From IMG/VR virus record IMGVR_UViG_2690315922_000010: DNA of 18,250 nt; one strand, written 5' to 3'. Source of the DNA: a virus (lineage: Duplodnaviria > Heunggongvirae > Uroviricota > Caudoviricetes). This document shows positions 1-18,134 of this stretch, piece after piece (within the stretch, counting starts at the first letter, position 1; each line of letters begins with the position of its first letter). A program made the translations under genes and the position numbers. The notes beneath the pieces were generated by a model. The model made no database searches and had not been told where the DNA came from. It worked only from the letters and a program-made list of their open reading frames with translations.

Positions 1-409
1 GCTCGAACTGACCATAACCAGCGCCCGGCAGTGAAGCCCAGATATTGCTGCAACGGTCAATTGCCTGACGAATATCACCGCGATCAATCATCGGTAAAGC
101 GCCACGCTCTTTAATCTGCTGCAATGCCACAGCGTCCTGGCTTTTCGGAGAGAAGTCTTTCAGGCCAAGCTGCTTACGGTATGCATCCCACCAACGGGAA
201 AGAAGCTGGTAACGTCCAGCTGCGGTTGATTTAAGTTGCGGGTTTAGCGTGACAAGTTTGCGAGGATGATCGGAGTAATCCGTGAATAGCTCACCACCTA
301 CAATAACGTCGTAGCCGTGATTGCGGGTTGGCTGTCGCCCGTTATCCGTTCCTTCTGACCACGCCAACATATCGAGAAAAGCTTTACGCTGGGAATTTAG
401 TACCTGCAT
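1..409 (-). CDS. R: Phage endolysin R (lambda R-type lytic transglycosylase), 3' end truncated by the window edge
   Basis: Reverse-strand translation from ATG at 409-407 reads MQVLNSQRKAFLDMLAWSEGTDNGRQPTRNHGYDVIVGGELFTDYSDHPRKLVTLNP...GAGYGQFE, near-identical to lambda R as I recall it (catalytic Glu in AWSEGT). Absent from the ORF track because no stop lies inside the window. Confidence 0.9.
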   Translation of the reverse strand, partial: MQVLNSQRKAFLDMLAWSEGTDNGRQPTRNHGYDVIVGGELFTDYSDHPRKLVTLNPQLKSTAAGRYQLLSRWWDAYRKQLGLKDFSPKSQDAVALQQIKERGALPMIDRGDIRQAIDRCSNIWASLPGAGYGQFE

Positions 410-412
410 AAA

Positions 413-739
413 TTACTCCTTCGAGCTACCAAATTTGTTGCCGATTACTCTCATTGCAGCACCACGAATAGCATCGACGCCGATCAGCCCAACGCCGCCA
501 CCAATGGCAACAGAAAGTGATTTAGGCCATCCGACATACTCAAGCGCGGATGCAAAGGTCAGCGTCAGAGCGCCACAGAGCAAAATCTCGAGCGTTTTTC
601 TCTTCCAGCCACCACCACCGCCAAAATAGGCAATGCGCAAGCCAGCCATAACGATCGACATAATCACTGCGCCCAGCGGTGTGTCTCCACGCCACCAGCT
701 CTGGACCAACTCCAGCCAAGTATTTGGGTTATGAGGCAT
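413..739 (-). CDS. S: Holin (lambda S-like class I), 108 aa
   Basis: Sits immediately upstream of R on the same strand with a 3-nt gap. Small protein with hydrophobic segments, a glycine-rich turn (YFGGGGGW) and a charged C-terminus. GAGGTGA ribosome-binding site upstream, though about 13 nt from the ATG. Confidence 0.7.
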   Translation of the reverse strand: MPHNPNTWLELVQSWWRGDTPLGAVIMSIVMAGLRIAYFGGGGGWKRKTLEILLCGALTLTFASALEYVGWPKSLSVAIGGGVGLIGVDAIRGAAMRVIGNKFGSSKE

Positions 740-887
740 TTGTAGTTATCTCTCACCTCGCTGATACAGCAGGTGCAAATTGAGGAAACATCATGTACCG
801 CAAATCAGAAGCGGAAACGTCAAAGAAGCCGAGCCAATGGATAACTGCGGGATAGACTAGGCCCAACGAATCCCCAGGCCCAGAAAC

Positions 888-915
888 GACAAAACCCGCT
901 CGACGGCGGGTTTAA
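888..915 (-). terminator. Candidate intrinsic terminator upstream of the lysis genes (tR-prime-like position)
   Basis: 8-bp stem AAACCCGC/GCGGGTTT (892-899 and 906-913) with 6-nt loop. Read on the minus strand it is followed by a U-rich tail (UUUUGUCGUUUCU). About 150 bp upstream of S. Confidence 0.35.
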
Positions 916-1030
916 GCTGTGTGGCGAAGTAACCACTCTTAACACAATACAATACTTTTTGCGTACGCGTTAGTGTTTTGATAGAATTTTCAGCCACATA
1001 AAAATCCATTCTTATAATTGGGGATATATA

Positions 1031-2206
1031 ATGGATATAACTTGTTTAGAATGTGGCAATGTTCTTGACGACCCAACTGTAGCTTGCGATAAATGCGGTG
1101 CCACGCCTCATGTTGTAGTGCTGGGCAAACAATCGTACTTTCCTATTGGTGCTGTAACAGCAAATCTTGAAAAAAATGATTCAAGAGCATTTGATTATCG
1201 ATTAGGTGAAGTTTGGGATCTAAAAAATGAAGTCACATCTGAATTCATAACCAGAATTGAGAAAAAATTTAGCCGAAAAAACAAATTTCATAACTTCCTA
1301 GACTCAGATCACAACCCTTCATCCATTCCTACGATCCTAAAAAAATACATTAATAAAAATAATGAATTCATTGATTTATCTAGAGCTATAATAGAGAGGC
1401 TTAAACATAATGCTAATAACGAATCGAGAGTTGCCCAACTTCAGGGGGGGAGCGTTGTTTTCATCCACTATAAGTCTACCGAACCAGAGGATTTGGGGAA
1501 ACTTCTAATCGTAATGGTTGATAAACAAAGCGCCTATGACTTTGATTCGGATAAGTTGACCCCAACAAGATTAAATCCAATTAATACCGATGCCTTACGG
1601 CAGGCTGCGATGTTCGATTTAACTTTATTCGAAGCCAGTTATCCAGAAAACAAGGGTGACTCATATGTACATTTCTTGCAAGGTAAATCTAAAAGCGATT
1701 TTTTCAAAGACTCATTAGGTTGCCGACATGATTCGGACAATAAAAGAAGCATTCAGCAATTATTCAGTGCTATAGATATTTTTGCTAGTAAAAACTCACT
1801 CGGTCGTGTACTGCGTGATACTATTGACAATGAAGTTAAATCCTTACTGGAAAAAAAATCAAAAGATAAACACGGAAATAAGTCCGTTAAGATAGAGGAT
1901 ATTTCAAAAATAATTGACTCATGCCTGACTGATTCACACAAATGTAAGGGAACGTTTGTCGATTTTGTTAATCTTAATGGTTTCCAGATTGACCCTCAAT
2001 TTGAACCAACTCCTAAAGCAGCTGAAAGCGCGCTTACAATTGAAGTGGCAGATAACGACAATAATTTTAAGTTGAAAATAATGCGTGGAGCTATTGGAGA
2101 CGAAAAGTCAAATAAGCCTGTAATTCTCACTGACAACAAATGCGAAATTGTGATAAAATTGAGTCAGGCAAATTATGATGAACTCAAAAGATATAGAGAC
2201 AGCTAA
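1031..2206 (+). CDS. Zinc-ribbon protein with NdpA/YejK-like (nucleoid-associated, PF04245-like) domain, 391 aa; cassette gene 1
   Basis: ATG at 1031 with GGGGA 6 nt upstream. N-terminal CxxC-X10-CxxC (C5, C8, C19, C22). Central block GGSVVFIHYK...LLIVMVDK...YVHFLQGKSKSDFFKDSLG resembles the NdpA/YejK signature as I remember it. Strongly AT-rich codon usage compared with flanking phage genes. Function is inferred, not confirmed. Confidence 0.8.
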   Translation: MDITCLECGNVLDDPTVACDKCGATPHVVVLGKQSYFPIGAVTANLEKNDSRAFDYRLGEVWDLKNEVTSEFITRIEKKFSRKNKFHNFLDSDHNPSSIPTILKKYINKNNEFIDLSRAIIERLKHNANNESRVAQLQGGSVVFIHYKSTEPEDLGKLLIVMVDKQSAYDFDSDKLTPTRLNPINTDALRQAAMFDLTLFEASYPENKGDSYVHFLQGKSKSDFFKDSLGCRHDSDNKRSIQQLFSAIDIFASKNSLGRVLRDTIDNEVKSLLEKKSKDKHGNKSVKIEDISKIIDSCLTDSHKCKGTFVDFVNLNGFQIDPQFEPTPKAAESALTIEVADNDNNFKLKIMRGAIGDEKSNKPVILTDNKCEIVIKLSQANYDELKRYRDS

Positions 2207-2208
2207 TA

Positions 2209-3423
2209 ATGACAATTGCTGATGACTTATCAAGATTAGCGCAGATTATTAACGGAGCCTCAAGCAGAGTTGAGGGCTACTACACTGTCATAAGTCTTGA
2301 AGAAAGCATTGTTATTGTAAATAGTTCTGAAATAATTAGACTGTTACAATCTATAGGTTATAAAAAGGCAACAACCTGCATCGAAAATAATGAAATTTGG
2401 CTAGATCGCCAAGCTTCATCTTGGGATGACGCTATAATTTATGAGAATGTTGAGTCTTTTTGGTCTAGAGTAAACACCCAAAACGCTCTTCCGAAAAATT
2501 ATATCATCGGAACGCCGTTAATACTCCCTACTTCTAAGAATGAAAGCATCGAAAAAATCCATATTTTCTTTATGTGGAAAGATATCCTTTCATTAATTGC
2601 TGATCATCATAACAGTGACTGCTCTGTCTTATTTTTCACCAATGAAGACAAAAGTTATACAGTCGAACTCACGCATTTTTTACAATATAGCGAGATTAAT
2701 CGCTTATCGAACTCGTCTCTTAAATATGAAATTATAAAGGAGCTTCTCGACACAATAAAAATCAATGATTTACACAAAAGCGAGCGCAAGCTCGTTATAC
2801 GCTCAGCCATAAACGAAGTATTTAAAGCAAATGGTACGTTCAATTTCTTTGACTTGCTTAACTCTACTGAACTCGTCAGGAAAAAATATGATGAACTATA
2901 TGAGATTTACACAAAGAGGTTTTCTGTAAATAAAATTCTTAACGAACTCGATGAGAAAAATCTTGAGTTCACGAGTAAAATTAACGAATTCATATCATCT
3001 AATCAGACAAAAGCATTGACTATTCCCGGTGCATTAATAGCAGCTGGTGGCTTAGTGAAGGCTAATGAAACAACCGAAGCAATATTGATTATCGCAGGAC
3101 TTTGGATGATAAAAAAAGTCAATTACATTTCTATTGAGATATTCAATGAAACATTCGACAACTTACGTTCTCGAGTGGAGTCCGCTTTCGATAAGTATTT
3201 AAAGTTTGAAGAAAATAAAGAAATCAAAGATAATGCAGATAGTATTAAGAGTAGCATTACAGGTTTGATTGATAAAGCTAAAAAAAGGATGAGAACTGTT
3301 AAATATCTCGCATCAGCCATGTTTTATGGAGGCCTTATTTACGTTGGATATAAACAGTTCCCAGTCTTTTTTGAAAAATCGGCAGTAAATCTATTTTATT
3401 TTTTATGCCATACTATAAGCTAA
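2209..3423 (+). CDS. Membrane-anchored protein of unknown function, 404 aa; cassette gene 2
   Basis: ATG 2 nt after the stop of gene 1, suggesting translational coupling. About 265 aa soluble N-terminal domain, then a hydrophobic helical hairpin (about aa 268-303, ALTIPGALIAAGGLV...AILIIAGLWMI) and a third hydrophobic segment (about aa 366-380, YLASAMFYGGLIYVGY). AT-rich like gene 1. No recognisable catalytic motif. Confidence 0.75.
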   Translation: MTIADDLSRLAQIINGASSRVEGYYTVISLEESIVIVNSSEIIRLLQSIGYKKATTCIENNEIWLDRQASSWDDAIIYENVESFWSRVNTQNALPKNYIIGTPLILPTSKNESIEKIHIFFMWKDILSLIADHHNSDCSVLFFTNEDKSYTVELTHFLQYSEINRLSNSSLKYEIIKELLDTIKINDLHKSERKLVIRSAINEVFKANGTFNFFDLLNSTELVRKKYDELYEIYTKRFSVNKILNELDEKNLEFTSKINEFISSNQTKALTIPGALIAAGGLVKANETTEAILIIAGLWMIKKVNYISIEIFNETFDNLRSRVESAFDKYLKFEENKEIKDNADSIKSSITGLIDKAKKRMRTVKYLASAMFYGGLIYVGYKQFPVFFEKSAVNLFYFLCHTIS

Positions 3424-3759
3424 CATTGCTAAACAGCCGTCAACAAACCCCATTGCAGTTTGCAGTTCCTTCCTAATTGTGCCATCAGAGCATTTTCTCT
3501 TCTTCGCAATAGTGCGTAATGAGATACCGATAACAAAGTGGGCGATGATGAGCTCATATTCCTCTGGTTTATACCTTCTCAACCGAGCCACACAACTGTC
3601 TATCATGATGCCTTCATCATCATCGCACTGGAGACGTGACTTTTTACCGTGTGGTAGAAGCCCCTTGAAACCAGCCGCTATCGGCTGCCAGTCGACACCA
3701 CTATTTTCTGCTGCAGCCCAAGCCCCCCAACGATCTAAAACTTCGTACATATCACGCAT
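3403..3759 (-). CDS. Q: Late-gene antiterminator Q (phage 21/QuuD-like family), 118 aa
   Basis: MRDMYEVLDRWGAWAAAENSG...AAGFKGLL...RLQCDDDEG...CSDGTIRKELQ matches the small Q family of E. coli lambdoid prophages as I recall it. Lies between the replication genes and the lysis genes. ATG overlaps the stop of the upstream gene (TGATG). Confidence 0.8.
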   Translation of the reverse strand: MRDMYEVLDRWGAWAAAENSGVDWQPIAAGFKGLLPHGKKSRLQCDDDEGIMIDSCVARLRRYKPEEYELIIAHFVIGISLRTIAKKRKCSDGTIRKELQTAMGFVDGCLAMLAYSMA

Positions 3760-4001
3760 CAGCGCAGTACCTCCTGCACCAGTTTTTCAAACTTTCCAAC
3801 TTTGGTTTCCAGCTCTGCCACACAATCAACGAGCTCATCCACCGCTTTTTGTGCGCGATGTTTCGCCTGCATCAGTTCCCTGAGCGCTGGCACCATATCC
3901 CGACGAATGGCATCTTTTGTTACACCTGTTTTTTCCAGTTGTTCCGCCTGTCGCAACATTTCCTGTGCCTGTTTACGTAGTTGTTCAGGGGTAAAAGTCA
4001 T
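3759..4001 (-). CDS. Hypothetical small coiled-coil protein (about 80 aa), nin-region position
   Basis: The ORF track starts at a TTG (4016); I prefer the ATG at 4001 (MTFTPEQLRK...). Charged helical sequence. Its stop overlaps the Q start, and its 5' end abuts the DnaB stop. No clear Shine-Dalgarno. Confidence 0.5.
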   Translation of the reverse strand: MTFTPEQLRKQAQEMLRQAEQLEKTGVTKDAIRRDMVPALRELMQAKHRAQKAVDELVDCVAELETKVGKFEKLVQEVLR

Positions 4002-5404: not shown

Positions 5405-6279
5405 GCAGCCACACCTCTGATACGAGAACGGTAGCTGGGCCAGTTGAACGACAACCAGTTGCGCCCCCCGTCTGTGATCCTGTCGGCAATGCGGGGGCTG
5501 ATGAACGCCCACAACTCTTCCGGTGAAAGGTTGCTGATCAGGATGGTGGGCAGGATACTTTCGTACCGGGCATTGATAATTTCCTGCAAAATAGCCATTT
5601 CAGCCGCGCTGCCAAACTGAACACCAACTTCGTCGATGATCAGCAAATCCATTGACGCATAATGCTCAATAACTTCATCCGCTGTTTTTTCGCTGTCATT
5701 CCGCCAGCAGTTTTTCACAGCACGGGTAAGGCGCATCACGTCGGTGATCTCCACGCTGGCCAGATGATTACGGATGATGTGTTTTGCCATAGCCACAGCC
5801 AGATGATTTTTCCCGGTACCGCAACTGCCAGTCATAACAAGACTGGTGCCGTTCTCCAGCATATCTGGCCAGTTCTCCGCATAGCGGCGACAGGCTGCAA
5901 GATTTCTGGCTGCGTCAGGATTAACCTCCAGATAGTTATCAAACTCACAGTCCCGAAAACGCAGGGCAATTCCGGCGTTATCAGTCAGCTCTTCCGCCTT
6001 GAGGGACGACAGCTCCATGGTCAAATCGTTGGCCTCAGCGATCAAGCAGTCAGGGCAGCATGAAATTTTTTCTCTGTCCTCGCCATTGCGATCGCTCCAC
6101 ACCAGTATATGCGTATGGTATTTACCGTGTTTTTCGCAATACCCGCGACCTTCACGCATCAGGCAGGAACGATAAGGCCATGGCTTTTCGCCCTTCTGAG
6201 CAAATGCAATCTCTGCCCGTAACTCATCCATTCGCGCCTGTAGTCTTGTTTGTTGTTCACGCAGGTTAAACGTCATCAT
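5401..6279 (-). CDS. DnaC/IstB-like AAA+ helicase loader, about 292 aa
   Basis: Walker A GSCGTGKNHLAVAMA and Walker B LLIIDEVG. N-terminal Cys/His-rich segment (CEKHGKYHTH...CCPDC). ATG at 6279 preceded by GAGGTGA; the track start at 6288 is a GTG. Confidence 0.85.
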   Translation of the reverse strand: MMTFNLREQQTRLQARMDELRAEIAFAQKGEKPWPYRSCLMREGRGYCEKHGKYHTHILVWSDRNGEDREKISCCPDCLIAEANDLTMELSSLKAEELTDNAGIALRFRDCEFDNYLEVNPDAARNLAACRRYAENWPDMLENGTSLVMTGSCGTGKNHLAVAMAKHIIRNHLASVEITDVMRLTRAVKNCWRNDSEKTADEVIEHYASMDLLIIDEVGVQFGSAAEMAILQEIINARYESILPTILISNLSPEELWAFISPRIADRITDGGRNWLSFNWPSYRSRIRGVAA

Positions 6280-6289
6280 CGCTGTCACC

Positions 6290-7198
6290 TCAGAATGTCA
6301 ATTTGTCACTGGATTTACCGAATTTGTCAGACATGGCACCAAGGCCAGACAGGACATCGACCTGTCGCTGTCGCCCACCTCCGGGAGCGGCTGGCTGTTG
6401 CCAGAAATCTTCGAAGTGACGATCGGGGCCAAAGAACGTCGCAGCCTGCTTCACGAACTGTGTGCCGGTATTTCCTGTAGCACGTACCCAGGCGGCATAA
6501 CGTCTCACACCATCAAGCATGGTCTCCGGTTTTATTCCCTCCCTGAGACGGGCTTTCCAGGCTTTGAAGGCTGCTGACTTGGAATTGCCACCAGCACGTT
6601 TGGGATATTCCTGCCAGGCCTGTTCAAATTCCGGTGAATATTCCTGTCGGGCAGAACGCGCTGGTGCAGACGCGTCAGCGGATGCGCCAATAGTGTTTTT
6701 ACTCTCTGTAGTATTCTCTGAAGTAATCTCTGTTGTATTCTCTGTAAGATCGAAATTGGTTTTCCCTTCTCCGCGGCGAGGGGTTTCCCGTGTCCGCGGT
6801 GAAGGCTTGCCCTCCTCCGCGAAATTGGGTTTTACAGTTTCCCGAAAACGGGTTTCCCCATTTCGGGAAAACTGATTGTTTTCATTGATAATTTCATTAA
6901 GGCGCTCACAATCTATACGGTAGAACATTTTGTGCTCAAGACGCTTGTTGGTTTCAACCAAAATGCCTCTGGACACAAGATGCTTACGCGCTACAGCCTG
7001 TTGTTCAAATGTAAGTCCGGTTTCGTGTTGTATCTCTTCACGCGTTTTATGTACGCCTTCCGCTGCATGTGCTTTATCCTGCCAGTAAAAAATCTGACCA
7101 AAGAAAATAACAGCGTGCGGACTTCCCATGTATTTAACGAGCCCAGGGTAATAAGCAACCGGATGCCCAAAATCGAGCAGAAGATCAGACGGACGCAT
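6290..7198 (-). CDS. Replication initiator / replisome organiser (lambda O analogue), about 302 aa
   Basis: Immediately upstream of the loader and helicase genes. ATG at 7198 preceded by GGGAGGTGG. The mid-region encodes a repetitive peptide (TENTTEITSENTTESKNT) over tandem DNA iterons, as in lambda O/ori. Family assignment is by position and architecture. Confidence 0.75.
   Translation of the reverse strand: MRPSDLLLDFGHPVAYYPGLVKYMGSPHAVIFFGQIFYWQDKAHAAEGVHKTREEIQHETGLTFEQQAVARKHLVSRGILVETNKRLEHKMFYRIDCERLNEIINENNQFSRNGETRFRETVKPNFAEEGKPSPRTRETPRRGEGKTNFDLTENTTEITSENTTESKNTIGASADASAPARSARQEYSPEFEQAWQEYPKRAGGNSKSAAFKAWKARLREGIKPETMLDGVRRYAAWVRATGNTGTQFVKQAATFFGPDRHFEDFWQQPAAPGGGRQRQVDVLSGLGAMSDKFGKSSDKLTF
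6703..6870. repeat. Origin-like iteron array inside the initiator gene
   Basis: Four tandem 12-bp repeats starting at 6703, 6715, 6727 and 6739 (TCTCTGTAGTAT, TCTCTGAAGTAA, TCTCTGTTGTAT, TCTCTGTAAGAT). Downstream are GGKTTTCCC repeats (about 6768, 6781, 6850) and an inverted repeat TTCCCGAAAA...TTTCGGGAAA (about 6839-6872). Confidence 0.6.
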
Positions 7199-7418
7199 AG
7201 CCACCTCCCAGACGCTTAAACATTTTCCCGGACTGAAAAGCCACCAGCGGATAACTCAGGGTATGAGTACGTCCCTGAACCTGGCAGACAACCTTCTGGC
7301 TTTCTGTATTGACCAGGCAAACCCGCAGAACGTGGCCGTTGCTGGTGGTGAACCACTGCCCCACACGGGGGCAACGGTTGTATCGGTGATACAAGGAATT
7401 AACGACGCGGCGAATCAT
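7185..7418 (-). CDS. Hypothetical protein, 77 aa
   Basis: ATG at 7418 preceded by GGGAGGT and overlapping the stop of the upstream gene (ATGA). Basic and Cys-containing. The track start at 7433 gives a slightly longer form. Confidence 0.55.
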   Translation of the reverse strand: MIRRVVNSLYHRYNRCPRVGQWFTTSNGHVLRVCLVNTESQKVVCQVQGRTHTLSYPLVAFQSGKMFKRLGGGYASV

Positions 7419-8077
7419 GGGCGCACCTCCCATTGATTACGGCGGAAAGCGGTGTGACTGAGACTGGTTTCAGTTTCATGGAATGCTTCAATGCAGCTCT
7501 CGTAGTACCGCATTGTGCGCAGACTTAACCCAAGCTGAAGCATCATCAGGCCATCAAGGGTGATGTAATAACCACGCAGGGAGTCACCATAGATGTGATA
7601 AGTACCCGGTATGAAATTGCGGGTAAAAAATTCGCGCGAGCAGTTCAGATACTCGATTTTGTCGACGATGTTCTGGTGCATGCGCTTGAAATGGCAGGCA
7701 ACATGCAGGGAGAAAATAACGGCCTTGCCGTTGACGACTTCGATTTTCAGGTATGGGGAAGTTGGGACTGTAGCCATGATGGCAGCCTCCGATAACAGTG
7801 AATTACCTTCACCACCGGAAACGCCAATTTCGCTGGTGGTGAACTGAACGGGGTTGGCGTAACCGGCGTTATCGGAAACCGGCGCACCTTTCGGTGCCCC
7901 CGTCCAGCCCACCATAATTTGGGTGTGCGCAGACGCAGACGATAAAAAAGACGCTGGCGCGTCATATATCGCCGATAACATTTCCAGGACGCCAATCCCG
8001 GCACCCGCTTTATAAGGTGCTTGGACAGTGTACCGTCCCGAAATTGCAGAATCAATATTTAGGCTTGAAACATTCAT
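7415..8077 (-). CDS. Hypothetical protein, 220 aa, no recognisable domain
   Basis: Longest ORF in the interval and translationally coupled to the downstream 77-aa gene. Weak ribosome-binding site at its own start, so the start is uncertain. Confidence 0.5.
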   Translation of the reverse strand: MNVSSLNIDSAISGRYTVQAPYKAGAGIGVLEMLSAIYDAPASFLSSASAHTQIMVGWTGAPKGAPVSDNAGYANPVQFTTSEIGVSGGEGNSLLSEAAIMATVPTSPYLKIEVVNGKAVIFSLHVACHFKRMHQNIVDKIEYLNCSREFFTRNFIPGTYHIYGDSLRGYYITLDGLMMLQLGLSLRTMRYYESCIEAFHETETSLSHTAFRRNQWEVRP

Positions 8078-8155
8078 ATGCTTACTGGTATTTTTGTTAA
8101 CGTTCTTGGATTCTTGGGCCTGCTTTATGCAGTTGCCTGTATCAACGTTGAGCGA

Positions 8156-8180
8156 GCCGGGTCACTACCCGGCTTTTTTT
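8156..8180 (+). terminator. Canonical intrinsic terminator, plus-strand polarity
   Basis: GCCGGGT (8156-8162), loop CACT, ACCCGGC (8167-8173), then TTTTTTT (8174-8180). On the minus strand the hairpin follows the Rha stop but has no U-tract. Confidence 0.45.
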
Positions 8181-8893
8181 CACCGCTGCCAGCCAATAAC
8201 CTGAAATAACCCCATTTTCGGGTGATACCAGCGAGTCCCTCGCGGTTCTGCTTCCTCCATAACCCGATAAAAAGCAGCCATAAACGGTTCCACGGCAACA
8301 ATTGCGCGACGTGATAACAATCCGTCCGGCGTCATAAACTCGTGGGTATCTGTAGGAATTTGATAAGCGTTCACCAGATTGCGGCATTTATCATCTGACA
8401 AACCGGTTTTTGCTTTCAGTTGGCGATATCCGGCATAGCCCTCACGAATAGTGCCCTTTTTGATTTGCTCGACTGTTTCAGCAACGTGGCTGACTTTTTC
8501 TTCCACCTGAGTGATCCGTTTCTGCTGGCGAACAGCTTCAAGAGCCATTGCAGCAACCATTTCGATTTCGCTCATTGGCTTACGGATCTGTTCTTCCAGT
8601 TCGCGCCAGCGATCTACCAGGCGGGCTGTGAATTCGGGGCAAAGCTGAGCGACAACAATGATGCTGTCGCGTTTGCCTCGTTCACCTTCGAAAAGATAAT
8701 GCTTACTTTTTTGAGTTAAACCTAACCCATTGATATTTTCAGAAATCCCCATTGGGGGAAGCTGAATAATCCTTCTTTCAGCAAGGCGCTCAATGGATTG
8801 TTTAACTTTGTCATGGCGGCTGCCCACCAGCTCTGCGATTTCAACACTGGTCATGGATGCTTTGCCGTTAAAAATTGCGGTGTTCACTGCCAT
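8180..8893 (-). CDS. Rha-family phage regulatory protein, about 237 aa
   Basis: N-terminus MAVNTAIFNGKASMTSVEIAELVGSRHDKVKQSIERL is typical of the Rha (PF09669-like) domain. ATG at 8893 preceded by TAAGGAG; the track's upstream extension is rejected. Confidence 0.75.
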   Translation of the reverse strand: MAVNTAIFNGKASMTSVEIAELVGSRHDKVKQSIERLAERRIIQLPPMGISENINGLGLTQKSKHYLFEGERGKRDSIIVVAQLCPEFTARLVDRWRELEEQIRKPMSEIEMVAAMALEAVRQQKRITQVEEKVSHVAETVEQIKKGTIREGYAGYRQLKAKTGLSDDKCRNLVNAYQIPTDTHEFMTPDGLLSRRAIVAVEPFMAAFYRVMEEAEPRGTRWYHPKMGLFQVIGWQR

Positions 8894-9707: not shown

Positions 9708-10400
9708 ATGACATTTTCAGAACGACTTGATTTAGCTATGCGCAACGCAAAATTTACGCAAGGTAGGCTGGCCAAAGAAGTGGGTATGGCTCAGTCCAGT
9801 GTTAATCAACTACTTAACAAAGCCAACGGTTCCAGAAAAACAGTCGAAATAGCAAAAGTTTTGGGCGTTAACCCGGAATGGCTCGCATCGGGTGTTGGTC
9901 CAATGGAAATCGTGACCTCTGCAGACTCACACCAAATACGTAACATTTCTGAAGATTGGGTTACTGATTCGTATGTCGTGGATGTTTTAGACATCAGATA
10001 TAGTTGCGGACCTGGTAGTTATAACTCTGATTTTCCTGACATTGTCAGATCTATAGCGATAGAACCAGGATACGCATCAAGAGTTTTTGGCGGCAGACCA
10101 GCATCAGCAATCAAAGCAATAAACGCCCACGGCGACAGTATGAAAGGCACAATAGACCCTGAAGACTTGGTATTTGTAGATGTATCAGTTCGCACATTTA
10201 ATGGTGATGGTATATACGCCTTTACATACTCTGGAACATCGCACATCAAAAGACTTCAAAAAATCAAAGATACTCTAACGGTGATATCTGACAACCCAGC
10301 TTACAAGGATTGGGCTATCGAACCGGAAGACTTCGAACAACTTCACATTGACGGAAAAGTAATTGTCAGTTGGCCTATGACACTACACCGTTTTGCATAA
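9708..10400 (+). CDS. cI: CI-like prophage repressor (XRE HTH N-domain + S24 LexA-like peptidase C-domain), 230 aa
   Basis: N-terminal HTH (LAKEVGMAQSSVNQLLN). C-terminal autoproteolysis domain with the GDSM motif (Ser nucleophile) and a downstream Lys. AGGGGAGGA ribosome-binding site. Divergent from cro-like. Confidence 0.9.
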   Translation: MTFSERLDLAMRNAKFTQGRLAKEVGMAQSSVNQLLNKANGSRKTVEIAKVLGVNPEWLASGVGPMEIVTSADSHQIRNISEDWVTDSYVVDVLDIRYSCGPGSYNSDFPDIVRSIAIEPGYASRVFGGRPASAIKAINAHGDSMKGTIDPEDLVFVDVSVRTFNGDGIYAFTYSGTSHIKRLQKIKDTLTVISDNPAYKDWAIEPEDFEQLHIDGKVIVSWPMTLHRFA

Positions 10401-12677: not shown

Positions 12678-12866
12678 ATGAGACTGTATTTCACAATAGT
12701 AATTTTACTGGCAATTATCGCATGCATTTACGGATTACTCGTTCCGTTCCTTATATCCATGAAGGATACGATAGCAGTTATTTCTGGCTTTGCACTGGCG
12801 TTTCTGACCCCGCCCTGCATTTATGCCATTTACAAGGGTCTTTCTTTCACTAAGGATAAAAGATGA
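12678..12866 (+). CDS. Small membrane protein, 62 aa (two predicted transmembrane helices)
   Basis: Two hydrophobic helices. Stop overlaps the start of the SPFH gene (ATGA), suggesting co-translation with it. Confidence 0.5.
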   Translation: MRLYFTIVILLAIIACIYGLLVPFLISMKDTIAVISGFALAFLTPPCIYAIYKGLSFTKDKR

Positions 12867-13690
12867 AAAAAATTATTTTTGCTTTAGCCATTGTTCTGCC
12901 GACTATTGGCCTCGTCGGTTGCGATCGCGTTGAACCAGGTAATGTTGGCATCAAGGTAAATAAACTGGGCGACGACAAAGGCGTCGGTGAGGTGGTCGGT
13001 GTTGGTCGCTACTGGACAGGCTGGAACACTGAAGTTTATATCTTCCCGACCTTTAAGCAGATGAAGACCTACGATGATCCATTCAGTTTCCAGATGAGCG
13101 ATGGAACAACCATTGGTTACCACATCGGAGTAGCCTACAAAGTTGATCCATCCAAAGTTACCACGGTGTTTCAAACCTACCGCAAAGGTGTGGATGACAT
13201 TACCGACACCGACCTGCGCCAGAAGATAGCAGATGCACTAAATCGGCTGGCCAGCAAAATGACCACCGACAAATTTATCGACGGCGGCAAGTCTGAGCTG
13301 CTGGATGCAGCTCTAAAAGATATTCAGGCAGAAATGACGCCCATCGGTATTCAGGTAATGAGCCTGTCTTATGTAGGTAAACCGGAGTACCCGCCAACCG
13401 TTATCGACAGCATTAACGCCAAAGTCACGGCAAACCAGAAAACCCTGCAACGCGAGCAGGAAGTAAAACAGCGCGAAGCGGAAGCCAACATGTTGCGTGC
13501 GGAGGCTGCCGGACAGGCAGATGCAATTCGCACAAAAGCTCAGGCCGAAGCCGATGCTATTCGTTTACGCGGTGAAGCTCTGCGCCAGAACCCCGGTGTT
13601 ATGGAGCTGGAAGCCATCAATAAATGGAACGGCACACTGCCGCAATACATGACCAGCGGTGCCAATACACCATTTATCCAGGTTAAATAA
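12863..13690 (+). CDS. SPFH/Band-7 (stomatin/HflK/C-like) lipoprotein, 275 aa
   Basis: Signal peptide with lipobox LVGC. Band-7 core followed by an Ala/Glu/Gln-rich coiled coil (QREQEVKQREAEANMLRAEAAGQADAIRTKAQAEADAIRLRGEA). AAGGA ribosome-binding site. Confidence 0.85.
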   Translation: MKKIIFALAIVLPTIGLVGCDRVEPGNVGIKVNKLGDDKGVGEVVGVGRYWTGWNTEVYIFPTFKQMKTYDDPFSFQMSDGTTIGYHIGVAYKVDPSKVTTVFQTYRKGVDDITDTDLRQKIADALNRLASKMTTDKFIDGGKSELLDAALKDIQAEMTPIGIQVMSLSYVGKPEYPPTVIDSINAKVTANQKTLQREQEVKQREAEANMLRAEAAGQADAIRTKAQAEADAIRLRGEALRQNPGVMELEAINKWNGTLPQYMTSGANTPFIQVK

Positions 13691-14813: not shown

Positions 14814-16127
14814 ATGGATAAAGTCAAATATCCAACAGGCGTCGAAAACCACGGCGGCACATTACGCATCTGGTTTAATTTTAAAGGTAAACGTGTCAGG
14901 GAAAATCTTGGTGTCCCTGACACTGCCAAGAACAGGAAGATCGCCGGGGAACTACGGACATCGGTATGTTTTGCCATCCGCACAGGAAGCTTTGATTATG
15001 CTGCACAGTTCCCTGACTCCCCTAACCTTCAGGCTTTTGGGGTAAGTAAAAAAGAAATTACGGTGAAAGAACTTGAAGAAAAATGGCTGGATCTGAAACG
15101 AATGGAAATCTCTGCAAATGCATTCAATCGCTATGAATCCGTTGCAAGAACGATGGTTCCGAAAATTGGAGGCAGCAGACTGGTGTCATCGGTAACTAAA
15201 GAGGAATTGCTGTATATCAGGAAAGATTTGCTGACCGGGTATCAGAATCCAACGAAAAACAAAGCAGCAGCAAAAGGACGGAGCGTCGTTACTGTAAATT
15301 ATTACATGACGACAATCGCTGGAATGTTTCAGTTTGCTGCAGATCACGGTTACTTAGAAGCAAATCCCTTCCAGGGAATTAAGCCTCTTAAAAGAGCCAG
15401 GGCAGAGCCAGATCCGCTAACTCGTGACGAATTTATTCGCCTGATAGATGCTTGCCGACATCAGCAGACGAAAAACCTGTGGTCATTGGCTGTGTACACA
15501 GGAATGCGTCACGGTGAACTGGTCTCCCTGGCCTGGGAAGATATCGATCTGAAAGCAGGAACTATTACTATCAGGCGCAATTATACGAAACTCGGTGAGT
15601 TCACTCTACCTAAAACTGAAGCAAGTACAAACAGGGTTGTGCATCTTATCCAGCCCGCTATCAGTGTCCTGAAAAATCAGGCTGAAATGACAAGACTGGG
15701 TAAGCAGCACCACATCAAGGTTCAACTACGTGAATATGGGCGTTCAGTGAATCATGAATGTACTTTCGTATTTAACCCCCAGGTGGTTAGAAAAAGCAAA
15801 CAGGTCGGTTTTATCTACAAGGTAGATTCTATTGGCGACTCATGGGAAACAGCCATTAAGCGTGCGGGCATCAGGCACCGGAAAGCATACCAGTCACGAC
15901 ACACTTATGCGTGCTGGTCGTTATCTGCCGGAGCAAATCCAAGCTTCATTGCCAGCCAGATGGGCCATGCAAGTGCCCAGATGGTGTTCAATGTATACGG
16001 AGCATGGATGACTGACAGTAATGCAGAACAGATCGCAATGCTGAATCAGAAGCTGGCAGATTATGTCCCAATGATGCCCCATAGTCACCAAAATGGCACA
16101 AAAGGCTTATTAAAATCAGTAAGTTAA
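14814..16127 (+). CDS. int: Tyrosine integrase (lambda Int-like, IntR/IntE-type N-terminal arm-binding domain), 437 aa
   Basis: GGAGG ribosome-binding site. N-terminus PTGVENHGGTLRIWFNFKGKRVRE...GSFDYAAQFPDSP is typical of E. coli lambdoid integrases. C-terminal catalytic region has conserved Arg, His-x-x-Arg (SRHTYA) and Tyr. Last gene before the host junction. Confidence 0.9.
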   Translation: MDKVKYPTGVENHGGTLRIWFNFKGKRVRENLGVPDTAKNRKIAGELRTSVCFAIRTGSFDYAAQFPDSPNLQAFGVSKKEITVKELEEKWLDLKRMEISANAFNRYESVARTMVPKIGGSRLVSSVTKEELLYIRKDLLTGYQNPTKNKAAAKGRSVVTVNYYMTTIAGMFQFAADHGYLEANPFQGIKPLKRARAEPDPLTRDEFIRLIDACRHQQTKNLWSLAVYTGMRHGELVSLAWEDIDLKAGTITIRRNYTKLGEFTLPKTEASTNRVVHLIQPAISVLKNQAEMTRLGKQHHIKVQLREYGRSVNHECTFVFNPQVVRKSKQVGFIYKVDSIGDSWETAIKRAGIRHRKAYQSRHTYACWSLSAGANPSFIASQMGHASAQMVFNVYGAWMTDSNAEQIAMLNQKLADYVPMMPHSHQNGTKGLLKSVS

Positions 16128-16136
16128 TCCTTAATA

Positions 16137-16555
16137 CCCGTCATGTTAACTGCGTAGAGGGCAACACTACTCTGTATGCACTGCCGAAAGCGGAAGTTGT
16201 GCTGCGCTGGCGTGAGCAAACCAGCGACGATTTCCGTTTTTGTTTTAAGTTCCCGGCAACTATTTCGCATCAGGCTGCATTACGTCATTGCGACGATTTA
16301 GTGACAGAGTTTTTCACCCGTATGTCGCCGCTGGCACCACGCATTGGGCAATTCTGGCTGCAATTACCCGCTACCTTCGGTCCACGGGATCTGCCTGCGC
16401 TTTGGCATTTTCTCGATACTCTACCTGGCGAGTTTACCTACGGTGTGGAAGTTCGCCATCCGCTATTTTTTGCCAAAGGGGAAGAAGAACAAACGCTTAA
16501 TCGCGGCTTGCATCAACGTGGCGTTAATAGGGTAATACTAATCAGACACGTTTAA
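16137..16555 (+). pseudogene. yecE: Internal fragment of host DUF72 gene (yecE-like), disrupted at both ends
   Basis: The open frame reads ...NCVEGNTTLYALPKAEVVLRWREQTSDDFRFCFKFPATISHQ...NRGLHQRGVNRVIL with no ATG start (the track uses a GTG at 16199). My recollection of E. coli YecE matches from about residue 30 to about 165. Upstream it runs into the int stop region and downstream it diverges into a stop. Confidence 0.6.
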
Positions 16556-16605
16556 ATACACCATCCAAAGCGATACAATCACACTATTAGTTTTTTATGG
16601 TGTAT
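16556..16605. repeat. Perfect 9-bp inverted repeat upstream of the serine recombinase gene (candidate att or regulatory site)
   Basis: ATACACCAT (16556-16564) and ATGGTGTAT (16597-16605), flanking 32 bp of AT-rich DNA. Lies at the point where the yecE-like frame is lost. Confidence 0.5.
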
Positions 16606-16610
16606 AAACT

Positions 16611-18134
16611 ATGAAACGTGCAATCAGTTACATCCGATTCAGTTCTGAGAAGCAATCCCGAGGTGATTCACTACGCCGACAATCGAAGTTGGTCACTGAC
16701 TGGCTTAAAGCTCGTCCTGAGTATCATCTAGATGAATCTCTTACCTTCCGTGATTTGGGGAAAAGTGCTTTTAGCGGTAAGCACTTGAAAGGTGGCTTAG
16801 GCGACTTCTTAACCGCTATTGAGAAAGGGCTTGTAAGAGCTGGTGATACGCTCTTGATAGAGTCTCTTGACCGTCTGTCACGGCAAGATGTAGACCGAGC
16901 AAGTGAACTACTCAGAAACATCCTTCGCTCTGGTGTCGATGTGGTCACATTATCCGATAATGAACACTACACAAAGGAATCTCTTAAAGACCCGTTAGCC
17001 TTGATTAAGTCAATCCTGATTATGCAACGAGCGCATGAGGAAAGTTTGAGGAAGTCTGAGCGTATACAGGCTGCATGGGATGCAAAGAAAGAAGCCGCTA
17101 AAGCTGGTATCAAGATTTCTAAGCGTTGCCCTGCATGGCTTAAGCTTAATAATGACCGTAAAAGTTTCTCTGTAATCCCTGAGAAGGTAGCGACGGTAAA
17201 GCGATGCTTCCAGCTACGGTTAGAGGGTAAGTCTATCTTGGAAATTGTCAGAACTCTTAATAGTGAGGGACATCAGACGCTTAACCAGTACAAAGCGGGT
17301 AAATTTAGTCAGACTTCTGTGCAAGACCTTTTGAAGAATCGCTCTGTAATTGGTTATTTCACCCCCAAAGGCTGTGAAGAAATTTCAAACTATTACCCCT
17401 CTATCATCCCTGAGACTGATTTCTACAAAGTCCAGCAACTATCATATCCTCGTTACGGTAGAAAACCTGCTTCAGATAAACCATTGAGTGTGAATCTTTT
17501 CAAGGGTGTTATCCGTTGTTCTGAATGTGGTCATGCTCTGATTATCACAGGCTTTAGCGATACAAGGAACGGGATATATCGCTGCCCTCTTCGTAATGAA
17601 AACCGTTGCAGTGCTAAGGGTCTGTCACGTAAGCAAACTGATGGAACATTACTTGCTTTGCTCTCTCGTCTTGACCGATTTGAGAATGGTACAACGAATG
17701 CCATTGATACACTGAAGCTACACCGTGAACACATTTCAAACAATATTGAGAAGCTGGTACAACTCTCACTTGAAGTCGAAGACCTGACCGCTATTACCAG
17801 CAAGTTAAAACAGTTAAAGGGGGAGTTATCACAGGTTGATGCTGATATTGAGAAGGAGGCACAACGCCTTAAATCTATTGACGTGGGTTGTTTGTCTGAT
17901 TGTGACTTGAGTACAAAGGCGGGAAGGATTGAAGCACAACTGATTATTCGTAGTGCTGTTAAAGAAGTTGTTTTAAACACTGCTAAACGTCGCTGTAGAG
18001 TAACTTTTCACAATGGCAAGGTGATTGACCTGTCGATAACAGAAAACCCCGCTCAGGACATTACAGAGGCTGAAAAGTCGCTTACTGAAATTGCTGAGAA
18101 GGGTCTGTTAGATGTTGACGCCTTCCAACTGTAG
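16611..18134 (+). CDS. Large serine recombinase (serine integrase), 507 aa
   Basis: N-terminal resolvase-type catalytic domain (AISYIRFSSEKQSRGDSLRRQ with Ser nucleophile, LIESLDRLSR). Recombinase domain, Cys-rich zinc-ribbon (CSECGH...YRCPLRNENRC) and C-terminal coiled coil. Confidence 0.9.
   Translation: MKRAISYIRFSSEKQSRGDSLRRQSKLVTDWLKARPEYHLDESLTFRDLGKSAFSGKHLKGGLGDFLTAIEKGLVRAGDTLLIESLDRLSRQDVDRASELLRNILRSGVDVVTLSDNEHYTKESLKDPLALIKSILIMQRAHEESLRKSERIQAAWDAKKEAAKAGIKISKRCPAWLKLNNDRKSFSVIPEKVATVKRCFQLRLEGKSILEIVRTLNSEGHQTLNQYKAGKFSQTSVQDLLKNRSVIGYFTPKGCEEISNYYPSIIPETDFYKVQQLSYPRYGRKPASDKPLSVNLFKGVIRCSECGHALIITGFSDTRNGIYRCPLRNENRCSAKGLSRKQTDGTLLALLSRLDRFENGTTNAIDTLKLHREHISNNIEKLVQLSLEVEDLTAITSKLKQLKGELSQVDADIEKEAQRLKSIDVGCLSDCDLSTKAGRIEAQLIIRSAVKEVVLNTAKRRCRVTFHNGKVIDLSITENPAQDITEAEKSLTEIAEKGLLDVDAFQL

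Follow-up and report, generated by a model that had tools for sequence, protein, structure and literature searches.

The gene pair at positions 1031 to 3423 of the DNA analyzed here, an 18,250-nucleotide stretch of a Caudoviricetes virus (IMG/VR record IMGVR_UViG_2690315922_000010; referred to as the window), is almost certainly the anti-phage defense system DS-1. Taken as a whole, the data probably describe a two-gene anti-phage cassette that forms an AT-rich insertion within a lambdoid prophage and works by a mechanism of the PANGU type. The two genes are as follows:

1031 to 2206, + strand: DS-1A, a YejK/NdpA-like (NA37) nucleoid-associated anti-phage protein of 391 amino acids (ATG-started open reading frame).
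2209 to 3423, + strand: DS-1B, its 404-amino-acid partner and putative membrane effector (NF053869, PHROG 5023, and AlphaFold2 model).

DS-1A scores 452.3 bits against the NCBIfam model NF053868 (DS1_1_antiphage; cutoff, 330), with residues 10 to 377 covering positions 3 to 369 of the 369-position profile, and DS-1B scores 375.2 bits against NF053869 (DS1_2_antiphage; cutoff, 315). DS-1A is identical to WP_000355468.1 at 390 of 391 residues, the sole change being K123R, and DS-1B is identical to WP_000150292.1 at 399 of the 399 residues visible in the published table. These two proteins constitute D390, the working identifier of DS-1 in the DefensePredictor study (DeWeirdt et al., Science 2026, PMC13092281; bioRxiv 10.1101/2025.01.08.631726), where NA37 is annotated at residues 42 to 382. 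The window and D390 agree in both genes and their order, in the NA37 annotation, and in the weak zinc-ribbon match. The locus is thus a published, experimentally validated defense system and is already known.

In that study, DS-1 was assayed in prophage-free MG1655 from a low-copy plasmid, under the control of its native promoter. The plating reductions given in the accessible part of its data, all for the K123 variant, amount to 7.6 logs for Bas1 and 2.7 for Bas26, with 1.7 logs for both Bas3 and T3, 1.0 for T5, and 0.9 for T7 (PMC13092281). The paper offers no mechanism; its main text mentions only “a YejK nucleoid-associated domain” and not the N-terminal ribbon, and the late-promoter niche discussed below is likewise absent from the paper. 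The 2023 release of PADLOC, which predates DS-1, returned zero matches at E values up to 1 for either protein. DS-1 is present in 106 of 5,426 complete Escherichia coli genomes (about 2%), always at an identity of at least 99% and always abutting the antiterminator gene Q, and the carriers include O104:H4 and O103 lineages. Most of the RefSeq records listed label the two genes “nucleoid-associated protein” and “hypothetical protein.” In the O103 strain WL1467 (locus L001, positions 16031 to 17026), DS-1A is annotated with 331 amino acids and is followed by a 183-nucleotide gap before DS-1B; this copy looks truncated or frameshifted, and some carriers may therefore lack an active system.

DS-1A consists of a clamp body preceded by a short cysteine-containing extension, as follows:

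1136 to 2203, + strand: YejK-fold clamp body, residues 36 to 391 (PHROG 3767, AlphaFold2 secondary structure, and conserved lysine/arginine columns).
1043 to 1096, + strand: putative zinc ribbon CxxC-X10-CxxC, residues 5 to 22 (invariant cysteines in all 25 ribbon-bearing homologues).

The ATG of DS-1A is preceded by a GGGGA Shine-Dalgarno sequence at a spacing of 5 nucleotides. The Pfam family PF04245 (NA37) matches residues 64 to 376 (profile positions 27 to 318 of 325) with 85.6 bits, above the cutoff of 24.6 (E = 5.5e-24), and PHROG 3767 aligns with residues 36 to 390, the match beginning after the N-terminal extension. A profile of the DS-1A family recovers the solved structure of E. coli YejK (9be2) with an E value of 1.2e-18. 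In the alignment of the two proteins, the two motifs from which a first-pass annotation of this DNA had proposed an NdpA/YejK-like fold pair with GGFVLFCHYR and YLTFLKGRvgrKVADFFMDFLG of YejK, which bears out that proposal. The predicted structure has the two-domain YejK fold with extended dimerization arms, including a β-hairpin arm at approximately residues 157 to 196 and C-terminal strands plus a helix at residues 336 to 390. A CD-NTase/nucleotidyltransferase fold, which the annotation had considered and set aside, is rejected here as well, since DS-1A matches no nucleotidyltransferase profile or fold and has no clear GS...[DE]x[DE] motif. Against NF001557, the NCBIfam equivalog model of housekeeping YejK, DS-1A reaches 82.1 bits and falls below the cutoff of 341, which places it in a paralogous mobile branch and not with the chromosomal YejK.

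The YejK dimer forms a clamp whose basic pore measures 30 Å (PDB 9BE2; Schumacher et al., NAR 2024, PMC11229321), and its DNA binding needs R173, R176, and K177 in the N-domain and R276, R280, and K284 in the C-domain (PMC11229321). In the profile alignment, the N-domain loop is retained in DS-1A as G218-K219-S220-K221...K226, with K219 as the equivalent of YejK R173. The column of K219 holds lysine or arginine in 98% of the DS-1A homologues, K226 is basic in 93%, and K221 is present. The stretch E77-K-K-F-x-R-K-N-K85 is also conserved. DS-1A differs from E. coli YejK by an extra N-terminal extension of approximately 35 residues that contains the ribbon and, as the profile alignment indicates, by the lack of the basic C-domain triad. 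Furthermore, its gene is AT-rich, prophage-borne, operon-linked to a membrane protein, and carried by the 106 E. coli genomes mentioned above. The earlier suggestion of a repurposed YejK-type module was essentially right, and the gene belongs to a published anti-phage system.

The extension presents at residues 5 to 22 the sequence CLECGNVLDDPTVACDKC, with the pattern C5xxC8-X10-C19xxC22. The alignment comprised 54 full-length DS-1A homologues, 36 to 96% identical to the query, 25 of them ribbon-bearing. In all 25 the 18-residue spacing of the CxxC-X10-CxxC motif is fixed and the four cysteines are 100% conserved, whereas the spacer residues between them are conserved at only 24 to 68%. This indicates that selection acts on the cysteines and that the pattern, which the first-pass annotation had read correctly, is not due to chance. 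Its interpretation as a zinc ribbon held with two caveats: the two CxxC knuckles at conserved spacing speak for it, but the generic zinc-ribbon Pfam models (Zn_Ribbon_1, DZR, and Zn_ribbon_3) stay below threshold, with a best score of 13.4 bits against a cutoff of 25 (E = 0.07), and the segment is modeled with low confidence. Short motifs seldom reach a profile threshold. In the AlphaFold2 model, residues 1 to 33 have a predicted local distance difference test score (pLDDT) of 50 to 65, the linker falls below 50, and the ribbon is not packed against the clamp body. The DefensePredictor supplement gives a weak HHblits match of residues 3 to 26 to NinF/Zn_Beta_Ribbon, with a probability of 86 (PMC13092281).

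Together with the flexible linker up to about residue 35, the ribbon forms an acidic appendage with a net charge of −3. The ribbon is not family-wide: Pseudomonas-type proteins carry tails of 21 to 35 residues without cysteines, and nine Vibrio-type homologues have no extension at all and begin directly at the first strand. In an unbootstrapped neighbor-joining tree of the core, ribbons occur in one large enterobacterial clade and in a separate pair of proteins (P0071 and P0091), and this distribution calls for either a loss or a second acquisition. In all 25 ribbon-bearing proteins the segment has a net negative charge (−2 to −9; median, −4), and tails of 15 or more residues that lack the ribbon range from −1 to −10, with the same median of −4. 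A tethered acidic mini-domain that can be replaced by an acidic tail argues against an added DNA-binding module. The zinc ribbon is an acidic appendage specific to its clade, and a role in tuning clamp loading, release, or partner docking is more likely for it than DNA binding.

DS-1B starts 2 nucleotides past the stop of DS-1A (2209 and 2206, respectively) on the same strand and matches PHROG 5023 with an E value of 2e-158. Three regions can be delineated within it, as follows:

2209 to 2703, + strand: N-terminal α/β domain, residues 1 to 165, a candidate docking (“DNA-mimic”) domain (AlphaFold2 and charge).
3013 to 3135, + strand: hydrophobic helical hairpin, residues 269 to 309 (hydropathy, invariant residues, and AlphaFold2).
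3295 to 3363, + strand: second hydrophobic segment, residues 363 to 385 (hydropathy and AlphaFold2).

The AlphaFold2 model of DS-1B (pLDDT, 84.8) is composed of an α/β N-domain, a helical stalk, and hydrophobic helical hairpins. Residues 1 to 165 are moderately acidic, with a net charge of −9 (family median, −7; range, −17 to +1). The most conserved stretch, residues 226 to 284, belongs to the helical stalk and is followed by the hairpin, and Q266, K268, A269, P273, A275, and A278 are invariant. Averaged over the family, the hydropathy of residues 269 to 309 is 1.2 to 1.6, with predicted helices at 271 to 284 and 288 to 331, and that of residues 363 to 385 exceeds 1.2, with predicted helices at 337 to 383 and 385 to 403.

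DS-1A and DS-1B form one unit with conserved pairing. A DS-1B-like gene lies within approximately 20 nucleotides downstream of a DS-1A-like gene in eight of eight sampled loci, with profile E values of 1e-25 to 1e-154 for the first protein and 2e-35 to 1e-111 for the second. The sample comprises P. aeruginosa, Vibrio-type, ribbon-bearing metagenomic, and integrase-adjacent loci and four loci reached through three remote DS-1B relatives (L010 to L013). Where checked, the ribbon-bearing, tailed, and extension-free types of DS-1A all keep the DS-1B partner. Homologues of DS-1A are found in Enterobacterales, Pseudomonas, Oceanimonas, Vibrio, and Vogesella, and those of DS-1B are similarly spread; an exhaustive search with the DS-1B profile (E up to 1e-3) retrieved 778 representatives at 50% identity. 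Almost all of these have 380 to 450 amino acids and are matched along most of their length. In P. aeruginosa (L002 and L003, positions 6001 to 8422), a ribbon-less DS-1 pair is located directly beside a Pf-type filamentous prophage (Zot and DUF2523), so that the system rides on unrelated classes of temperate phage. In Vibrio splendidus, a truncated DS-1A-like gene of 259 amino acids (P0108; L004, positions 6001 to 6780) stands beside a phage integrase without a DS-1B partner. It resembles a degraded relic of the system and was left out of the system counts.

The cassette is inserted between the antiterminator gene and the lysis genes of the prophage, where the following features were identified:

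3403 to 3759, − strand: antiterminator Q gene, convergent with DS-1B (Pfam Phage_antitermQ, E = 2.1e-47; RefSeq agrees).
413 to 739, − strand: lambda-family holin, with which the lysis cassette begins (RefSeq annotation of near-identical loci).
892 to 973, − strand: 60-nucleotide block (973 to 914) followed by a terminator hairpin (913 to 892) and a T-tract, candidate late promoter/Q-utilization site and tR′ (terminator scan and conservation).
978 to 1005, + strand: promoter-like site TTGATA-16-AAAAAT upstream of DS-1A, a candidate only (consensus scan).

In RefSeq annotation of E. coli lambdoid prophages, DS-1 is on the strand opposite to both the flanking Q and the holin/lysis genes. The GC content of the cassette is 0.349 versus 0.504 in its flanks (about 0.35 across the region from 1000 to 3500, versus about 0.50), and the cassette lies between Phage_antitermQ and the lambda-family holin; the gene was thus rightly described from the outset as AT-rich and phage-borne. 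The 3′ ends of DS-1B and Q overlap by 21 nucleotides (3403 to 3423), and in Enterobacter and Yersinia a gap of 12 to 20 nucleotides is found instead. The homologues in these two genera (54% and 45% identity, respectively) occupy the same inverted position. That this junction is kept despite the divergence of DS-1 (35 to 54% identity) indicates that it is tight and old.

On the other side of the cassette, the spacer from the start of DS-1A to the holin measures 270 to 290 nucleotides in the E. coli, Enterobacter, and Yersinia loci. It contains the 60-nucleotide block, which is nearly invariant among the three (window, 973 to 914; L014:6734-7000; L016:6713-7000), and the adjoining hairpin, in which the stem sequence differs between loci and the pairing is preserved. 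Among the same prophages, Q is 65 to 80% identical and the holins 13 to 24%, and DS-1A and DS-1B are 45 to 54% and 35 to 43% identical, respectively. The conservation of the block tracks with Q and not with the holins, and the block is therefore probably the late promoter/utilization site of Q together with tR′, as judged from sequence conservation. If the block is the target of Q, DS-1 is wedged between Q and its target, and late transcription would not cross DS-1. This fixed inverted position could couple the expression of defense to the lysogenic or lytic state. The call of a promoter for DS-1 itself is weak, as the promoter scan found sites no more numerous than in shuffled sequence, and an Rfam scan of positions 1 to 4000 of the window gave only sub-threshold noise.

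The mechanism proposed for DS-1 follows that of the PANGU systems, which were defined in an April 2026 preprint (Li et al., bioRxiv 10.64898/2026.04.06.716658). According to that work, PANGU YejK-like proteins bind the chromosome nonspecifically; the type I protein Pag1A requires DNA of at least 400 bp and has no specificity for phage DNA. Degradation of host DNA by phage nucleases releases the clamp, which then binds an acidic “DNA-mimicking” (DMK) domain of the effector. In the type II system, PANGU-Ecu from uropathogenic E. coli, the nucleoid protein Pag2A is combined with Pag2B, a protein with a DMK domain at its N terminus and a transmembrane domain at its C terminus; Pag2A binds the acidic domain with a dissociation constant of 19 nM. 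Both genes are required, growth curves resemble abortive infection, Pag2A-GFP leaves the nucleoid upon T4 infection, and T4 escapes via denA (10.64898/2026.04.06.716658). Like type II PANGU, DS-1 is an anti-phage system of E. coli with a YejK-like nucleoid protein first and a partner with a moderately acidic N-domain and a putative membrane C-region second. Because DS-1 has this architecture, the PANGU mechanism was adopted as the most likely one. Type I PANGU (Pag1A and the GRel toxSAS effector Pag1B) has the same proposed sensor logic of a clamp and an effector with an acidic docking domain, but its effector is a soluble alarmone synthetase, whereas DS-1B is a putative membrane protein.

By analogy with these systems, we infer that DS-1 follows the PANGU scheme, with DS-1B permeabilizing the membrane; the role given to the ribbon is likewise putative. 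In healthy cells, DS-1A would sit nonspecifically on the host chromosome as a YejK-fold dimeric clamp. An infecting phage that degrades the host DNA would release it, and free DS-1A would bind the acidic cytoplasmic N-domain of membrane-embedded DS-1B. The conserved hydrophobic helical hairpins of DS-1B would then disrupt the membrane, and the infected cell would cease to support phage growth, as in abortive infection.

Several observations weigh against this interpretation. The likeness to type II PANGU was drawn from architecture. PANGU-Ecu was scored on T4 under induction with isopropyl β-d-thiogalactopyranoside (IPTG), whereas DS-1 was expressed from its native promoter, and T4 is not among the phages given for D390 in the accessible part of the published data (Bas1, Bas3, Bas26, T3, T5, and T7). 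In the profile alignment, the C-domain residues R276, R280, and K284 of YejK map to the nonbasic P328, E332, and T336 of DS-1A. The acidity of the DS-1B N-domain is moderate, with a net charge of +1 in one family member; moreover, the hydrophobic segments of DS-1B have moderate hydropathy and in most windows stay under 1.6, the usual Kyte-Doolittle threshold for transmembrane segments. A Foldseek comparison of DS-1B with the PDB gave no significant match (best E = 0.4), and the nonsignificant top matches, α-pore-forming toxins (AhlB, MakA, and SmhB) and CorA, give only a hint that the modeled protein is pore-former-like. The function of the zinc ribbon is addressed in neither the DefensePredictor nor the PANGU paper, and the text of the PANGU preprint mentions neither zinc, DS-1, nor prophage location.

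Three other explanations were considered, and all were graded less well supported than the PANGU-type mechanism. In an arrangement like that of Kiwa, DS-1B would sense phage attachment or DNA entry and recruit or release DS-1A onto the phage DNA, blocking replication or late transcription, and the cell might survive. This would suit the tight linkage of a membrane protein with a nonspecific DNA-binding clamp and the very strong protection against Bas1 (7.6 logs in the published data accessible here), as such strength points more typically to direct immunity than to leaky abortive infection. However, neither protein matches any PADLOC model, KwaA and KwaB included, at E values up to 1. The related type II PANGU shows abortive-infection curves and senses the degradation of host DNA, with escape through denA, rather than entry, and Pag1A, with its need for at least 400 bp, does not distinguish phage DNA. 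A Kiwa-like mode of action is therefore considered unlikely. The ribbon could alternatively be an added nucleic acid-binding module that gives the clamp a new specificity for DNA or RNA, for instance, phage DNA, which was the implicit reading of the first-pass annotation. Nucleic acid binding is common among zinc ribbons, purifying selection on the cysteines is strong, and the weak NinF-like/Zn_Beta_Ribbon similarity in the DefensePredictor supplement points the same way. Against this, all 25 ribbon-bearing proteins have a net negative charge in the segment, other clades substitute acidic and probably disordered tails (median, −4) or, in the nine Vibrio-type proteins, have no extension, and the ribbon-less types keep DS-1B where checked. 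In addition, the ribbon hangs unpacked on a low-confidence linker in the model, so that such a module is quite improbable.

It is very improbable that DS-1A acts mainly as a modulator of prophage or host transcription, like NdpA2 of PAPI-1, with defense as a side effect of overexpression from a plasmid. Horizontally acquired NdpA-like proteins that control their own element are documented (PMC8565334 and PMC6606824), and the DS-1 cassette is immediately beside the late regulatory region of the prophage. However, defense was measured with the native promoter on a low-copy plasmid in a strain without the prophage. The obligate pairing with a membrane protein persists outside prophages, where prophage regulation cannot explain it. 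Moreover, the faster divergence of both DS-1 proteins than of Q (45 to 54% and 35 to 43% identity versus 65 to 80%) and the AT richness of the cassette are typical of defense cargo.

The acidic appendage is possibly functional in both of its forms, the zinc ribbon of the lambdoid-prophage clade and the acidic disordered tail of the Pseudomonas-type clades. It may be an intramolecular DNA-mimic “plug” that would fill the basic pore of the clamp after loss of DNA and so set the threshold for release, or it may be a handle through which free DS-1A would dock on and gate DS-1B. The combined proposal, in which a functional appendage undescribed in the DefensePredictor and PANGU papers acts as plug or handle and the Q niche couples defense to the state of the prophage, is put forward as speculative and rather doubtful.

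The remainder of the window is the early and immunity region of the prophage, plus integrases. A protein with an SPFH/Band 7 domain (12863 to 13690, + strand; Pfam E = 1.1e-30) has no PADLOC match and is encoded in the early/accessory region, near a CI-like repressor (9708 to 10400) and upstream of an integrase; it may be another accessory gene. At the right end, two different recombinases adjoin on the + strand (14814 to 16127 and 16611 to 18134), one a tyrosine integrase that carries an Arm-DNA-binding domain and the other a large serine recombinase. This arrangement suggests that the prophage ends here beside another integrative element or that the element is composite. Among the complete E. 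coli genomes, none holds at least 80% of the window in one piece, the best match spanning 65% of it with 93.5% identity. The similarity found around DS-1 breaks off at about position 3761, which indicates a prophage mosaic.

The most direct consequence of these results is a clean annotation, in which two vaguely labeled genes are a validated defense system. That housekeeping nucleoid proteins are repurposed as infection sensors is a recent idea (2025 to 2026), and the locus provides a natural instance of it in a prophage. Three leads, namely the acidic appendage in its ribbon and tail forms, the apparent lack of a basic C-domain triad, and the location of the cassette between Q and the probable late promoter, could help explain how such a clamp switches on a membrane effector.
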